A stretch of DNA of 38,866 nucleotides from a virus (lineage: Duplodnaviria > Heunggongvirae > Uroviricota > Caudoviricetes). The notes under the pieces are model-generated. The model did no database searches, was not told the origin of the DNA, and saw only the letters and a program-made list of their open reading frames with translations. A program made the translations under genes and the position numbers. The DNA lies in the IMG/VR virus record IMGVR_UViG_2695420485_000017, one strand, 5' to 3'. Positions 2,007-38,065 of the stretch are shown piece after piece; the stretch's first letter is position 1, and the number at the start of each line of letters is the position of its first letter.

Positions 2007-3464
2007 TTAAACAACAATTTTAAGGAAGTTTGAAGCATCCTTATAAATGGTGCCCGCGGGGGCGCCGTTTATCTCCTCAAGCGTTTTTACGTTCTTCAAA
2101 ACCACCTTGCCATCTTCCAGAAATTCAATGCATGGTGCGTCGTTGTTCATGTTTATTTTCAACGAACCAACAGCACTACCTCCGTTTCCGCTTATCCATT
2201 CAAGTGACGCAATAGGAAGTGCATTGCCGTTGTGATCTGTCCCTTGTAGCAAGATCATTCCAGTTCCTACCCCTGGTATTCTGATAGCTGCGCGACCACC
2301 ATCCTCTAAAACTACTTCCAAAATTTCTTTAGGATATTTTGTGTGCACCCCTACACGCGTCAGCGAACCACCACCAGGGACGACGGCAATACCTGGAATA
2401 AGCGATTCTGCAAAAAGCATCACTGAGTCTTTATGTGGATTGATTGCTGGCTTATCGTCATTAGTGCCGCTCCCTATCGCAATCGAACCACCATAAGCCT
2501 GAATATTCTTACCTACAGCAAAAGAGCCATCTCCTGCCGCGCGAGTTCGATATCCAATGGCCGCCGCACCAATGCCATCACTTGCAACCCCGCCGGGGTC
2601 TGTAGTGTATCCCGGTCTGGCTTGCGTAAAATAACCTGTTGTAAAAGCCGCCCTTGAAAGCGCTTCCGTTTCTTCACAGAATGCGGCAGATTTTGCGCCA
2701 AGAGCAATGACATTTTTCCCAAATGCAAAAGAGCAGTACCCTTCAGCATTTGGTGAGGTAATTTGATCTGGGTCGCCAGTAGCAGAACCAGCACCACCGG
2801 CAATAGATGCCACGCCATACGTAACGCAGTCATGCCCGAAAGTTGTGGTGTATACCGCGAATGACGCACCGTTTCTGTTAAAAGATACGGAGTAGTCGCC
2901 AATCATGGCTGGGTTTCCCCATGAGTTTTTTGATGGAAGCCCTCGCCAGTAGTTCTTCTCGTCATCTAGCGGCTCAAGATCAGAGCCACCAACTCTAAGA
3001 GATCCTTTTCCCTTATCAAATAACCACATCACCCCCTGAGTCAGTGATGATCCAGTTGGTCTTCCGTAGTTTACCTTCTGCCCGATCAGCTTCATTCCAT
3101 CGTCCTGAGCCAGCTCATTTCTCAGGGTGTTTGGATTATATTTAAGCACGTCAGAAAAATAGTGCTGCCGTACTCCTTGAGCATCATAAACAGCCATAGA
3201 ATGGCCTTGCACAGTTACGAACTTGGCAATCTGTCCGTTATATACCGGATATCCAGCAGCGTTAATGATGATTGGTTGAGAAACAGGAACGTGAGATCCA
3301 TCTTCGTTCTCCACATAAACCTGAATCTGGTTTTCAGGATTTACCGGGTCAGTGTCAATTTTACCGATATAAATTTTTCCATTGGCTACGGCTTTAAAAG
3401 AACGAGCCATAGTGAAGAGTTGCGAAGGCATCGATACGATCACATTGGCTGTAATGTCTGTCAT
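2007..3464 (-). CDS. Tailspike/tail fiber with P22 gp9-like head-binding N-domain and unrelated Gly-rich C-terminal domain
   Basis: First ~110 aa (MTDITANV...[13 protein letters not shown]...) resemble P22 tailspike N-terminus; ATG with GGAG RBS; last gene of late module. Confidence 0.85.
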
Positions 3465-3521
3465 TTAATTTGCTCCAGATACAATGAATCGCCGCAGCAT
3501 GGCTACGGTGAATTTTGGGCA

Positions 3522-3547
3522 TAAAAAAACCCAGCCGAAGCTGGGTC
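3522..3547 (-). terminator. Rho-independent terminator after ant
   Basis: ACCCAGC-ttcg-GCTGGGT stem followed by T7 on minus strand, 18 nt after ant stop. Confidence 0.7.
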
Positions 3548-3564
3548 GTTGCGTTGGTTATCTG

Positions 3565-4500
3565 TCAGTAGTTATGTACTGAAGGAGGCAATTCTTTATT
3601 CTTAAGTCTCATCCATGCGGAAAGATTCGTTGGTCCGTCTGGCTCATTAATATCAACATCTCGTGTGTGGTTTATTAAAACGTCTCTCGCCATTCCGATA
3701 ACATACGAGAATTCATGACCGTAGTCGTAGCATCTGCCGGAATAGTTCGATTGAATTTGTTTTAGCGCCGGATACAGTTCGCGGAATAATGCCTGTGAGC
3801 GGTTGGCATAATCCCATAACCATACAAGGCTGTTTGCTTCTTTTGCAGAAAGCTCGTTTGCTTTCTTCTCTTGTTTGCCGATTAACTCGCCTTCAAGCGG
3901 AACGCGAGCTGCAAGTGACAGAGCTTCGGTAAACTGCTCATCGCTGATTTCTTTGTATGAACACCCAAAATGAGATTTCAGCGACGACCACATGGTAATC
4001 ATTGCCTTCGCCTGTTTTTCTTTTGGCAGAGACTGACCGCGACTCATGACGAGTTGTTTAATGGCTTCCTGCTGTTCAGTGGTGATTTTACCCGGCAACG
4101 CCTTTTTAGCTTTGCGTGGGTTAACTACATGGCCTTTAGTCCAGTAGTCATGCAGCACGCTAAAGCATTCCTCCTGGTACTGAATCAGTTTATCGCGGAT
4201 GTCAGCTCGAACTTTCTCAGGGTTGATGCTGAACAGCCATCCATTTAACTTCTTCAAAGGAAGGCAGAGTAGCTTACGAAGCTTCCCATCAGCGGCAACC
4301 ATATTCATATGAATACAGTTGAACTTATCTAGTTGTTTCATAAGTTTTTGTTGCTGAGTACCCCAACTCATTCCAAGGTTTTCAACGATTGGCTTCATCG
4401 CAACGTATGCAACTCCGGCAGCCATGGCGGTGATAATTTGCTGACCGTTGAATGGTACGTAAGAGGTGTTCACTGCTTCTAAAATTGCTATACTATTCAT
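3565..4500 (-). CDS. ant: Antirepressor Ant (P22 immI)
   Basis: Follows arc in operon with Oarc/Omnt; N-terminus [10 protein letters not shown]... starting at ATG 4500 (ORF track extends upstream via TTG). Confidence 0.8.
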
Positions 4501-30329: not shown

Positions 30330-30515
30330 TTATGCCGCTTTGCGGTAAGCGCTTTCTTGATACTTCAGGGCGCCAGCTGTAACGACTTCCAGTCGATAGG
30401 CGTCTTTCTCTGGGATGACTTCCTTCCACTGAGAGACTGCTGCGTCGCTAATGCCTAACGCTTTAGCTACAGCACGCTGGGTTCCGAAGTGGTCGATAAC
30501 ATCTTTCTTGTACAT
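30330..30515 (-). CDS. cro: Cro repressor
   Basis: 61 aa MYKKDVIDHFGTQRAVAKALGISDAAVSQWKEVIPEKDAYRLE..., matches recalled P22 Cro. Confidence 0.9.
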   Translation of the reverse strand: MYKKDVIDHFGTQRAVAKALGISDAAVSQWKEVIPEKDAYRLEVVTAGALKYQESAYRKAA

Positions 30516-30595: not shown

Positions 30596-31246
30596 ATGAA
30601 AACTCAATTGATGGGAGAGCGCATTCGCGCTCGGAGAAAAGAACTCAAGATCAGGCAGGCCGCACTTGGAAAGATGGTCGGCGTGTCTAATGTTGCCATA
30701 TCTCAGTGGGAACGCTCTGAGACAGAGCCAAATGGAGAGAATCTTCTCGCCCTGGCTAATGCGTTGAAGTGTTCCCCTGACTATCTGATGAAAGGAGAGG
30801 AAAGTCTTTCAAACATTGCCTATCACAGTAGGCATGATCCAAAAGGGTCATTCCCTCTGATTAGCTGGGTGAGCGCAGGATGCTGGATGGAAGCTGTAGA
30901 ACCATATCATAAGCGTGCAATAGATAACTGGTACGATACAACCGTAGACTGTTCAGAAGATTCGTTTTGGTTGGACGTGAAGGGAGACTCAATGACGGCT
31001 CCGGCCGGTCTCAGTATCCCTGAAGGAATGATAATACTCGTCGATCCTGAAGTAGAGCCGCGTAACGGGAAACTGGTAGTTGCAAAGCTCGAAGGAGAAA
31101 ACGAGGCAACTTTCAAGAAGTTAGTTATTGATGCAGGCAGGAAGTTTCTAAAACCACTTAACCCACAATATCCGATGATCGAGATCAACGGAAACTGCAA
31201 AATCATCGGCGTAGTTGTCGATGCAAAACTAGCAAACCTTCCATAA
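30596..31246 (+). CDS. c2: C2 repressor (LexA-like, S24 autopeptidase domain)
   Basis: 216 aa, near-identical to recalled P22 c2 (MKTQLMGERIRARRKELKIRQAALGKMVGVSNVAISQWERSETEP...GDSMTAP...). Confidence 0.95.
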   Translation: MKTQLMGERIRARRKELKIRQAALGKMVGVSNVAISQWERSETEPNGENLLALANALKCSPDYLMKGEESLSNIAYHSRHDPKGSFPLISWVSAGCWMEAVEPYHKRAIDNWYDTTVDCSEDSFWLDVKGDSMTAPAGLSIPEGMIILVDPEVEPRNGKLVVAKLEGENEATFKKLVIDAGRKFLKPLNPQYPMIEINGNCKIIGVVVDAKLANLP

Positions 31247-31810: not shown

Positions 31811-32083
31811 ATGGCAGTAGTCATTACATATCTGGCTGACGATAACGCCAGAAATCGTCGCAGAGCACGCAGACAGGCTCAACGTGAACAGGCGATGCAA
31901 GAGCAGCGACTGGCGCGAAAAATTGCGCTAAAGCTCTCTGGTTGCGTCAGAGCAGATAAAGCAGCATCACTCGGAAGCCTTCGCTGCAAGAAGGCAGATG
32001 AATGCAGTGGAAGTATTTGCCTGCCAAACGTAGCCATTTACGCGGCAGGCTACCGGAAATCAAAACAACTGACGGCGAGGTAA
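31811..32083 (+). CDS. N-like antiterminator (P22 gene 24-like)
   Basis: 90 aa with arginine-rich motif NARNRRRARRQAQRE near N-terminus; GGAGG RBS; first gene of PL operon. Confidence 0.6.
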   Translation: MAVVITYLADDNARNRRRARRQAQREQAMQEQRLARKIALKLSGCVRADKAASLGSLRCKKADECSGSICLPNVAIYAAGYRKSKQLTAR

Positions 32084-32086
32084 GTG

Positions 32087-32311
32087 ATGAATCAGACATA
32101 CATTCCATCATGCTTGAGAAATCTGCCAAAGCAGAAAGCAAAGCCCCGCAAGCAAGCCATAAAGGACGCTAAGGCAGAGGTTATTGATCAAGCAATACAA
32201 TTGCTCAGGGAGGAGTTAAGAAGTGGCAAGCTCGAAGGAATGATGATGCCATATCAGCGCGGATATCTATCGGCGATTAGTAAGTTGGAAGTATTGAAGA
32301 GTGAATTATGA
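32087..32311 (+). CDS. Hypothetical early protein
   Basis: 74-aa ORF starting 4 nt after N-like stop; basic N-terminus. Confidence 0.45.
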   Translation: MNQTYIPSCLRNLPKQKAKPRKQAIKDAKAEVIDQAIQLLREELRSGKLEGMMMPYQRGYLSAISKLEVLKSEL

Positions 32312-32373
32312 ACTATCTGGAATTTCCGGATGGTTCATTGTTTTGGCAGCAAACCACTTATTTGAGGTGAGAT

Positions 32374-32697
32374 ATGGAAGCATTAGTAGTAGAGCGAAGC
32401 GAGGATGGCTACTGGACGCACCCAGAATACGCCAACCTGTTTGGGGATAGAGAGGTAATTTCAGCTGATGAGTTCAGATCTTTCTGCAAGCAGCATGGCA
32501 TTGAATCATCAATTGTTGAAATGGAAAACGACAACAATCAAACGGTAATTGACGCGTATTTTGAAGATGGGAATCAAAACATCAGTGGATGGGAGCCAAG
32601 CATGCCAGATGGAGAAGGATGGTTTGTCGGTTCGATTCACGATACAGAAGACGGTCCGATCTGCGTTTGGTTCAGGAATGTAGATAAGGCCGAATAG
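32374..32697 (+). CDS. Hypothetical strongly acidic early protein
   Basis: 107 aa, about 24 Asp/Glu versus about 6 Lys/Arg; followed by terminator hairpin. Confidence 0.55.
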   Translation: MEALVVERSEDGYWTHPEYANLFGDREVISADEFRSFCKQHGIESSIVEMENDNNQTVIDAYFEDGNQNISGWEPSMPDGEGWFVGSIHDTEDGPICVWFRNVDKAE

Positions 32698-32712
32698 TCG
32701 GCCTTTATTTTT
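32688..32712 (+). terminator. Terminator candidate in PL operon
   Basis: GGCCGA-atag-TCGGCC followed by TTTATTTTT; stop codon lies in loop. Confidence 0.5.
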
Positions 32713-32734
32713 GGCATAAACAACAGAGGCTAAC

Positions 32735-33031
32735 ATGGAATTTAAAGGTACTGAAGGTAAGTGGGAAATAATGATGGATGGCGATGAGATTAAAATCATC
32801 CAGGCAGACTCACTTGAAAATGGCGCAGGCTGGCGTTCGTATATTGCAATCTGTGAGGAAGTTCAATGCATTGAAGATGCCAATCTAATAGCGGCAGCAC
32901 CTGACCTTCTCGAAGCACTTCAGTTATTACTTAAGCAAATCAAAAATAGAACAACGACAACATATCCAGAATGGTATGGAGCTGTTAATAAAGGTATCGC
33001 AGCAATCAGAAAAGCTCTTGGGGATAAGTAA
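32735..33031 (+). CDS. Hypothetical early protein
   Basis: 98-aa ORF, ATG start; next gene start overlaps its stop. Confidence 0.5.
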   Translation: MEFKGTEGKWEIMMDGDEIKIIQADSLENGAGWRSYIAICEEVQCIEDANLIAAAPDLLEALQLLLKQIKNRTTTTYPEWYGAVNKGIAAIRKALGDK

Positions 33032-33219
33032 TGAAAGTAAAAATAACTGCTTCTAATACCAGTTTTGTTAGTGTTGGTGATATTACAGAAGTAATAACAA
33101 ACCATGATGGAACACAAGTTATGTGGTCTGATTTTTGTAAAAGATATGAGCGAGTTAGTTGGTGTAAAAACGTATGGGGAGTCGAATACGAAGAATTACC
33201 TGAAATGCATGACGAATAA
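33031..33219 (+). CDS. Hypothetical early protein
   Basis: 62-aa ORF translationally coupled to upstream gene. Confidence 0.45.
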   Translation: MKVKITASNTSFVSVGDITEVITNHDGTQVMWSDFCKRYERVSWCKNVWGVEYEELPEMHDE

Positions 33220-34953: not shown

Positions 34954-35247
34954 ATGCCAGCGCCTCTGTATGGTGCGGATGACCCGCGCCGCTGTTCCGG
35001 CAATTCCGTATCGGAGGTGCTGGATAAATTCAGAAAAAACTACGATCGAATAATGTCGCTACCGCAGGAAACGAAAGAGGAAAAGGAATTTCGCCATTGT
35101 ATATGGCTTGCAGAGAAAGAAGAACGCGAGCGAATTTACCAGACATCAATCCGACCATTCCGCAAAGCCACATATACCCACTTCCCTGAAATTGACCCGC
35201 GCCTGCGTAATTACCGCTCACGCTATGGCGCTATCAGTAATGACTGA
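34954..35247 (+). CDS. Hypothetical protein (position of abc-type anti-RecBCD genes in P22)
   Basis: 97-aa ORF downstream of erf/ssb; function not assignable from sequence. Confidence 0.5.
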   Translation: MPAPLYGADDPRRCSGNSVSEVLDKFRKNYDRIMSLPQETKEEKEFRHCIWLAEKEERERIYQTSIRPFRKATYTHFPEIDPRLRNYRSRYGAISND

Positions 35248-35257
35248 GGAACTAACA

Positions 35258-35548
35258 ATGAAAACAATGAAGCTAAACATCGACCTCGGCAAATACGTTA
35301 TTACCGGAACAAAACACGACCTGATTCTTAGTGAAAGAGGAATTATCAAAGAAGGTGAGAATGCAGGGAAAGAAACACTAAGCCGTATCGGTTATTACAG
35401 CAAGTTTGAGCATCTGGTTAAAGAATTATGCAACCGTGAAATCCTGTTATCTCAGGCGCAGACGCTACAGGATATTCAGCAACATATCGAGACTTTAGGT
35501 GTGTCACTTAGCATGGCCGTTGACCAGTTCGTGGAGAGTAAATCATGA
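35258..35548 (+). CDS. Hypothetical protein
   Basis: 96-aa ORF with GAGGA RBS; ORF track shows longer overlapping frame. Confidence 0.5.
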
Positions 35549-35709: not shown

Positions 35710-36041
35710 AACAAATGTCACTAATTGAGATGGATGGATTTCTGAAAGGTAAATGCATCCCACGAGATTTAAAGGTGAACGAAACAAACACTGAATATCT
35801 GGTGCGTAAATTTGCTGAACTTGAAGCTAAATGCGCGGCGCTGGCTGCGGAGAATGCGGGGCTGAAGGATTACCTGGCCCCTATAGGGCTGAAGGTTGAA
35901 GGGACTCCAACCACCGACGCTTTCCTGGCTGAAGTACGAGCGCAGGGCGTGGAGATGTTTGCTGAGTGCGCATACACACTTGAACATCATGATCACGCAG
36001 TAGCCTTCGCCGCTGAGCTTCGCAAAGGAGGCAACCAGTGA
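35706..36041 (+). CDS. Hypothetical protein
   Basis: 111-aa ORF; C-terminus GGNQ-stop encoded by repeat AAGGAGGCAACCAGTGA. Confidence 0.5.
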
Positions 36042-36523
36042 CTGGACATGCAGCAATTCTCGACATGTGCTGTGGCAGTCGCATGTTCTGGTTCGATAAG
36101 AAGGACGGCCGGGCGATATTTAGCGATATCAGAAAGGAAGAGCACACATTGTGTGATGGACGACGGCTGATAATTAGCCCTGACCTGATAGCAGATTTTC
36201 GTGCATTACCATTTGCAGACGCATCGTTTCCGGTTGTTGTATTCGACCCTCCGCATCTTGAGCGTGTTGGTGATAACGCCTGGATGGGAAAGAAATATGG
36301 ACGGCTGAATAAAGATACCTGGCGTGATGATTTGCGGCAGGGATTTAAAGAAGCCTTTCGTGTGTTGCGGCCATACGGCGTTCTGATTTTTAAATGGAAT
36401 GAAACGCAAATACCTGTTCGCCAGATATTGGCACTGACCGACAGAAAGCCTGTTATCGGTCAACGAACAGGAAAGGGTGACAAGACCCACTGGATTATTT
36501 TTATGAAGGAGGGCAACCAGTGA
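36038..36523 (+). CDS. Putative SAM-dependent (DNA) methyltransferase
   Basis: Motif I-like ILDMCCGSR and motif IV-like FDPPH; GTG start 6 nt after AAGGAGG. Confidence 0.65.
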   Translation: MTGHAAILDMCCGSRMFWFDKKDGRAIFSDIRKEEHTLCDGRRLIISPDLIADFRALPFADASFPVVVFDPPHLERVGDNAWMGKKYGRLNKDTWRDDLRQGFKEAFRVLRPYGVLIFKWNETQIPVRQILALTDRKPVIGQRTGKGDKTHWIIFMKEGNQ

Positions 36524-37444: not shown

Positions 37445-38065
37445 ATGACCACTTTAACCGACAAAGAACTGATTAAAGAAATCAAAGAGCGCATAGGCAG
37501 CTTGGACGTTCGAGACAATATTGAGCGCCGTGCTTATGAAATTGCACTGGCATCACTGGAACGCGAACAGATTCGCCACGAGCATGCCAAATGGTCTGAC
37601 TCCACATTTGGCTGCGTTGGCCCCATTGGTCCACTGAAACACCTCTCAAAAGAGGCACTGGAAGCCGCAGCCGAACCAGACGATCTTAGCGAGTGGGCTG
37701 ATATGCAGTTTCTGTTGTGGGATGCACAGCGCCGTGCTGGCATCAGCGATGCTGAAATTACCGCTGCTATGAAAGATAAATTGAAGATCAACATGGAGCG
37801 CCAGTGGCCTGAGCCAAAAGATGGTGAGCCTCGCTTGCACATTAAAGAACCCGGCAACTCTCCGGTAACTCCGGATGGCTGGATAAGCTGTAGTGAGCGA
37901 ATGCCGGACGACGCGCAGTGGTGCGTAGTTGACGCCGCAGACGGGTATTACGTGCAATGCTGGTCTGAAGGTCAAGGATGGCTTGGAGATGACATCAGCC
38001 TACGTAATTGCGATGTAATCAGATGGATGGCGATTCCTGAACCGCCGGAGCAGGATGGTGAATGA
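37445..38065 (+). CDS. Hypothetical protein (DUF550/DUF551-like)
   Basis: 206 aa; C-terminal WISCSERMPDD...YVQCW...VIRWMAIPEPP resembles the recurrent prophage DUF551 pattern. Confidence 0.55.
   Translation: MTTLTDKELIKEIKERIGSLDVRDNIERRAYEIALASLEREQIRHEHAKWSDSTFGCVGPIGPLKHLSKEALEAAAEPDDLSEWADMQFLLWDAQRRAGISDAEITAAMKDKLKINMERQWPEPKDGEPRLHIKEPGNSPVTPDGWISCSERMPDDAQWCVVDAADGYYVQCWSEGQGWLGDDISLRNCDVIRWMAIPEPPEQDGE

Follow-up and report, generated by a model that had tools for sequence, protein, structure and literature searches.

A widespread acidic early protein of a lambdoid prophage, orthologous to mEp213 orf184 and exchangeable with ral, is a candidate protein-binding inhibitor of defence or host functions

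The question raised by this locus is what a small and strongly acidic protein, encoded just downstream of the N antiterminator gene of a lambdoid prophage, does for the phage that carries it. The gene lies on the plus strand at positions 32374..32697 of IMG/VR virus record IMGVR_UViG_2695420485_000017, a 38,866-nucleotide stretch of Caudoviricetes DNA referred to here as the window, and it is an uninterrupted ATG-to-TAG frame. Its 107-amino-acid (aa) product contains 24 Asp and Glu residues (22.4%) and 6 Lys and Arg residues, giving a net charge of -18 and a calculated pI of 4.1; no other of the 65 ATG-initiated open reading frames (ORFs) of at least 80 aa in the window has so high an acidic fraction, and the 14 next most acidic ones listed all have a larger basic fraction than its 5.6%. 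An original prediction had described a 107-aa protein with about 22% acidic and few basic residues, encoded by the second gene after an N-like gene in an early operon, and all of this is borne out; it had further proposed a DNA mimic of the Ocr or ArdA kind, an idea which the results below weaken. We instead favour, with a probability of roughly 55%, a stoichiometric protein-binding inhibitor of a defence or host protein, serving counter-defence or host takeover, which would carry over from its published ortholog the property of triggering the Gop-beta-cII system.

That 32374-32697 is a real gene follows from the match of its product to phrog_1372 (E 1.2e-43 in PHROGs, where the family is labelled “unknown function”), from 1005 relatives at E<=1e-3 (492 at E<=1e-10) when 1.8 billion cluster representatives were scanned in full with an HMM, and from the presence of the exact protein on 295 public E. 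coli contigs. The family representatives (approximately 1,000) are clusters at 50% identity from phages of beta- and gamma-proteobacteria. By tblastn the protein was found in 80 phage-genome records, the nearest being coliphage mEp213 (97.2% identity), and the remoter matches, of 30-46% identity and all annotated as hypothetical, were in phages of Pectobacterium, Yersinia, Erwinia, Klebsiella, Vibrio, Pseudomonas, Ralstonia and Burkholderia. Prophages of 41 of the 5426 complete E. coli genomes carry the gene, chromosomally every time and every time with the label “hypothetical protein”. Such labels, found everywhere, are all that favours a chance reading frame or a decaying, functionless gene, an explanation refuted by the near-invariant motifs of a family of about 1000 representatives and further opposed by a confident fold prediction, a good ribosome-binding site (a GAGG Shine-Dalgarno sequence read at 32364..32367 on the plus strand, 6 nt 5' of the ATG) and the published phenotype of the ortholog; we give it practically no weight.

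Two signature motifs of the family are both present in the window protein, V-x-R-[DS]-x-x-G-x-W-x-H-P and W-x-P-x-x-P-x-G-x-G-W-F-x-x-S-I-H-D-T-E-D-G-P-x-C-x-W-x-R, and in the subgroup to which it belongs D9 is replaced by S and W37 by F. The acidity is itself a family trait (median Asp plus Glu content 20.6%, pI 4.2 and net charge -15 per domain). Family members lie in early or accessory gene clusters of mEp213, phi1026b, PY54 and D6-like plasmid prophages, as the window gene does between N and cIII. In D6/P1-like plasmid prophages (L006-L010) a 46%-identical member, P0020 (937 index blocks), adjoins a ppp-like phosphatase gene within a stretch of very variable content that includes Ead/Ea22, DUF4752, zf-C4_ClpX and metallophosphatase genes, so that the family extends beyond lambdoid pL operons. 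Searches of Pfam, NCBIfam, PADLOC and PDB sequences with the 107-aa protein gave nothing significant, the sole Pfam match being a sub-threshold one to DUF2303 (E 0.12). Kinship with DUF551, suggested by a W-x-P...G-W pattern, was rejected when hhalign against the DUF551 protein of the window (37445-38065) returned a probability of 0.6%.

The gene is already known as an object, since its near-identical ortholog has been published as an accessory gene. The mEp213 protein AFM76385.1 (gp45) is UDP0184, or “orf184”, in the 200-gene library of Silas et al. (Supplementary File 3), and the window protein is 97% identical to it over 106 of 107 residues, differing by V28A, S36Y, Q68P and E107A (window residue first). 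The two share their length, their position after N and a 75-aa gene, and their family, and they differ in what lies downstream, the window having genes of 98 and 62 aa where mEp213 has one of 322 aa. The library curator's comment on orf184 was “???”, meaning that it had been checked and nothing meaningful found (bioRxiv 10.1101/2023.04.06.535777). In that study orf184 was conditionally lethal in strain ECOR59, transposon suppressors of the lethality mapped to beta and gop, and orf184-dependent death was reconstituted in a laboratory strain by cloned gop-beta-cII, a P4-satellite system (bioRxiv 10.1101/2023.04.06.535777). This trigger property would be expected of the window allele also, on the assumption that the four substitutions are neutral for triggering. 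Literature searches on this gene, its family and the trigger of gop yielded nothing past Silas et al. 2023 and Rousset et al. 2022 (PMC9122126), and the sequence is not in the supplements of the later Silas paper. As a separate observation, mEp213 is annotated with two different tandem N antiterminator genes (1953-2285 and 3438-3710) with three small ORFs between them, of which the second matches the N region of the window.

Comparison of the accessory region by megablast with the complete E. coli genomes showed that the gene exchanges with ral at a single slot. The flanks of the slot are present in 719 of these genomes, compared with 41 for the acidic ORF. In E. coli BL12, homology to the window continues until 32380, 7 nt inside the ORF, and is taken up again from 32700, 3 nt past the stop codon, with 32381-32699 replaced by a cassette encoding an “antirestriction Ral family protein” between the same two genes, a 75-aa gene (phrog_5305 by PHROGs match; 32084..32311, +) and a 98-aa gene (phrog_1273; 32735..33031, +), the latter being by PHROGs match and homology the right flank common to the ral-carrying prophage. 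Another genome has homology from 32341 on without the 75-aa gene, and homology to mEp213 stops at 32727, so that the breaks with other prophages (32341, 32380, 32700 and 32727) set a maximal extent of 32341..32727 (+) for the exchangeable cassette. These breaks and the replacement by ral in BL12 identify the acidic ORF as a discrete cassette alternating with ral at one locus, which sharpens to an exact positional equivalence the “same accessory region” statement of Silas et al. (bioRxiv 10.1101/2023.04.06.535777), though this remains guilt by association. The 75-aa gene was seen to precede the ral cassette in one prophage and the orf184-type cassette in others, and to be absent from NZ_OZ040950.1. 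In the E. coli prophage of NZ_CP109924.1 the match to the accessory region covers a gene for an “Nmad5 family putative nucleotide modification protein”, which may be a third cassette alternating at, or close to, the position taken by ral or orf184.

The likeness to Ral of lambda and P22, and to Lar of the Rac prophage, is thus one of slot and flanks (in the sister prophage), of a pL-operon position just downstream of N and of delayed-early expression. There is no sequence similarity between these proteins and the window protein (no Pfam match, including to the Lar_restr_allev zinc ribbon), Ral is 66 aa long, and Ral relieved restriction in the published screen, whereas orf184 was not named as doing so.

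A second line of evidence comes from the architecture of the relatives. Among the 175 best-scoring domains, 87 stand alone, while 46 are N-terminal and 42 C-terminal in longer proteins, and here we name as fusion partners those passing Pfam gathering thresholds. Lar_restr_allev is the partner in three proteins (N-terminal in two and C-terminal in one), a Tad2-like domain in one (P0075, where it is C-terminal to the orf184-type domain), an Rv2179c-like 3'-5' exoribonuclease in two, DHHA1, inside a phrog DHH phosphoesterase, in one, and KTSC in one. Members of the Lar-fusion cluster come from three independent datasets, one member lying on a 15-kb contig, and the gene for the Tad2-like fusion was called on a 1.7-kb contig; moreover, in PY54 a Lar-like protein is encoded by the operon that also holds the family member. 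Tad2 (Thoeris anti-defence 2, DUF2829) is likewise a small phage accessory domain, but it is unrelated in sequence to the window protein and the Tad2-like domain occurs here as a fusion partner only. By these fusions the orf184-type domain is a mobile module of phage accessory proteins, repeatedly joined to anti-defence and nucleotide-acting modules. Taken with the ral slot and the sensing of the ortholog by an abortive-infection system, they uphold the anti-defence context of the original prediction, by association.

The commonest partner is a domain of about 95 aa with the motif AERxRQ..EGWT.EHDD...LVKAGALILAEIERLDR and no Pfam or PDB match; in its longer form the motif reads AERxRQ..EGWT.EHDD.H..GELA.AA.Y...WPW..WKPS..RRDLVKAGALILAEIERLDR, and the domain was found in P0048, P0063, P0083, P0084, P0090, P0095, P0097, P0128 and P0162. 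It appears to be an uncharacterised phage domain family, and although by eye it seemed MazG-like we drew no inference from this, Pfam and PDB having given no match. Most remaining partners are PHROGs of unknown function, and PADLOC returned weak, scattered matches only on the fusion proteins. One relative (P0034, 305 aa) consists of two tandem orf184-type domains with a linker between them, and the domain may therefore work as a repeat or dimer.

The fusions to a Tad2-like sponge, to a DHH/DHHA1 phosphoesterase and to the Rv2179c-like exoribonuclease are also what favours a different activity, in which the protein would bind or soak up nucleotide-derived immune signals or would recruit substrate to nucleotide-acting enzymes. 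Such fusions are few (1 to 2 each among 79), the domain has a net charge of around -15, no open basic or aromatic pocket is evident in the predicted model described below, and the two conserved arginines appear structural there, R101 in a salt bridge with E44 and R8 near the 70-75 loop. On account of these seemingly structural arginines and the strongly anionic character of the domain, we rank the idea low and consider it improbable.

The proposal of an Ocr/ArdA-type DNA mimic, whose acidic surface would imitate the DNA backbone and so sequester type I restriction-modification (R-M) or BREX-type enzymes, could be judged against a predicted structure. Ocr has an elongated, helical fold in which the carboxylates trace the backbone of bent B-DNA. 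An AlphaFold2 model of the 107-aa protein from a 25-sequence alignment (pLDDT 88.3, pTM 0.78) has a short helix at 17-23, a helix at 31-40, a strand at 43-49, a helix at 56-63 and a C-terminal beta-hairpin at 83-91/94-102. A 68-sequence profile found no sequence relatives in the PDB, and Foldseek against BFVD found uncharacterised family members only. The predicted protein would thus be a compact alpha/beta domain whose fold has no solved relative and is unrelated to Ocr, ArdA and the other solved mimics.

Charge was analysed on the published AlphaFold model of ORF184 (Silas et al., Supplementary File 7), from which C-alpha and charge-centre coordinates were transcribed by hand, the transcription being checked by the consecutive C-alpha distances (3.66-3.95 A). 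The model measures about 41x33x23 A, and its carboxylates face nearly all directions (resultant length 0.17). High neighbour counts were found for the family-invariant residues W14, H16, W73, P75, W83, F84, S87, I88, C97, W99 and R101, indicating that these build the fold, and salt bridges join R26 to E33, E44 to R101 and E2 to K105; inspection of the coordinates by eye placed the R8 guanidinium near the 70-75 loop. The family signature is dominated by core aromatics and Gly/Pro rather than by surface charge. The only strongly conserved element that is exposed is the hairpin tip T91-E92-D93 (5-10 neighbours), and a single larger acidic cluster includes it, consisting of E27, E49, E51, D90, E92 and D93, with five of the six positions acidic in more than 80% of representatives. 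The codons of D90-T91-E92-D93-G94 (32641..32655, +) encode this tip, which family conservation and the model make a candidate contact site.

Ocr (T7 gp0.3) and ArdA are, like the window protein, small, very acidic and early-expressed proteins of phages or plasmids, and the acidity conserved across the family, the early-operon position, the slot common with ral, the Lar fusion of some relatives and the patch of about six carboxylates around the conserved hairpin would all suit a mimic. We found, however, no Pfam Ocr-family membership, no PDB match with either the single sequence or the profile, and no similarity to the sequence or three-domain fold of ArdA; the predicted fold is compact and not the elongated, DNA-shaped one of Ocr, and its near-isotropic charge forms no DNA-like array. 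The ortholog also behaved differently in the same screen, where Ocr, Ral and ArdA scored as anti-restriction in 45 restricted phage-host combinations, and where Ocr and ArdA (with Aop1) triggered death via a different locus in ECOR55 and Ocr also via a type III R-M system in ECOR22 (bioRxiv 10.1101/2023.04.06.535777); the death system to which orf184 maps is another one. On account of the core-dominated signature, the compact fold, the isotropic charge and an ortholog unlike Ocr, ArdA and Ral, we rate a DNA mimic acting on type I R-M as unlikely by a wide margin, while the local acidic patch on the hairpin may leave room for a mimic-like contact on a small scale. The results lend support to a small, rigid, anionic binding module, with the conserved acidic hairpin as the best candidate for the contact surface.

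The setting of the gene bears on when and for what it is expressed. The N antiterminator is encoded at 31811..32083 (+; Pfam N_peptide E 2e-15, phrog_271) and is followed by the 75-aa gene and then the acidic ORF, with a 62-aa gene (phrog_10407 by PHROGs match; 33031..33219, +) as the final gene of the accessory region ahead of cIII. By position and sequence, a LexA/CI-type repressor gene (30596-31246, +) and a cro-like gene (30330-30515, minus strand) lie upstream, placing the acidic ORF in a pL-type early operon of a lambdoid immunity region, and a cII-like gene is also upstream on the minus strand. A terminator-like hairpin (32308-32338) with a T-rich tail (32308..32348, +) stands between the 75-aa gene and the acidic ORF, where N-mediated read-through would be needed, and a second one (32686-32705; AAGGCCGAATAGTCGGCCTT followed by a T run; 32686..32715, +) overlaps the stop codon of the acidic ORF. 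Both are mere consensus matches, and they fit an N-dependent delayed-early expression. The GTG/ATG start of the 75-aa gene was seen to abut the N stop codon, which suggests that this gene is translationally coupled to N.

These surroundings are also rich in host-modulating genes (kil, cIII, erf, ssb and abc2), which is one reason to consider that the product may serve host physiology or competition between phages rather than immune evasion, for instance as a modulator of a host protein of replication, recombination or proteolysis or as a prophage-encoded exclusion factor, with Gop-beta-cII using it as a marker of infection. The carriage in prophages of E. coli noted above, the many uncharacterised fusion partners and the lack of a reported counter-defence phenotype for orf184 in the screen point the same way. 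The exact exchange with ral and the independent fusions to Lar and Tad2-like domains point instead to a defence arms race, and the position past N and the terminator-like hairpins argues for lytic-phase over lysogenic expression. We hold this explanation to be a real contender with perhaps one chance in a few of being correct.

Several other genes of the window were noted in passing. An Abc2 anti-RecBCD protein (PF11043, E 6e-64) is directly followed by a DUF5405 protein (35258-35548), the pair spanning 34954-35548 (+), and a DUF5405 protein is also in the accessory-gene library of Silas et al., as UDP0003 (bioRxiv 10.1101/2023.04.06.535777). Late in the pL operon, 37445-38065 (+) encodes a 206-aa protein with a dATP/dGTP pyrophosphohydrolase domain (PF04447, E 2e-42) and a C-terminal DUF551, which is also acidic (20% Asp/Glu). 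Within the pL accessory region a 161-aa ORF (36038-36523, +) has weak matches to methyltransferase domains (Methyltransf_11 E 2e-4, near threshold) and its product is possibly, from these matches, a small DNA methyltransferase with a self-protection role.

The reading of the acidic protein as a protein-binding inhibitor has several points to answer. In the infection arm of the published screen, wild hosts were sensitised by Ocr, Ral, ArdA, six novel genes and IpII, and orf184 was given only as a cell-death trigger, unnamed among the counter-defence genes in the 45 restricted combinations, and this absence of a counter-defence phenotype counts against the protein-binding reading; the screen used eight model phages, and according to its authors barrier defences mask intracellular phenotypes (bioRxiv 10.1101/2023.04.06.535777). 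The sharing of a slot and the fusion of domains are guilt by association, since lambdoid accessory slots hold unrelated genes too, such as the Nmad5-family gene, and the commonest fusion partners have no known function. The acidic patch depends on a predicted model with hand-transcribed coordinates.

As a protein-binding inhibitor, the product would act as follows. The gene would be expressed as an N-dependent delayed-early accessory gene of the lambdoid prophage, carried as a self-contained, exchangeable cassette in the N-to-cIII region. The invariant Trp, His, Pro, Gly, Cys and Arg residues would mostly build the core of the protein, leaving the exposed D90-T-E-D-G tip in the middle of an acidic patch (about six carboxylates), a surface that would probably bind stoichiometrically to a conserved protein, of the host or of a defence system, at a basic site. 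If the window protein acts as its ortholog does, its expression would activate the Gop-beta-cII abortive infection of P4-like satellites and the cell would die, and a phage with this gene would thus be exposed to the Gop-beta-cII defence.

A broader and more tentative possibility, which we would put behind the protein-binding reading itself, is that the orf184-type domain is the founding member of a widespread and structurally novel class of counter-defence proteins, with its conserved acidic hairpin inserted into a basic, possibly nucleic-acid-binding site of a defence or host protein. The domain would then be able to take the place of ral and to combine with Lar- or Tad2-type modules, and Gop-beta-cII would serve as a second-line detector of this inhibitor. 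The exact allelism with ral, the fusions to Lar and to a Tad2-like domain, and the acidic hairpin that is both conserved and exposed are new from this analysis and offer handles on the native target of the family. Finding that target could add a new class of counter-defence protein, and could explain what Gop-beta-cII senses, as a case of a defence that detects a variable accessory protein of the phage and not a conserved structural one.
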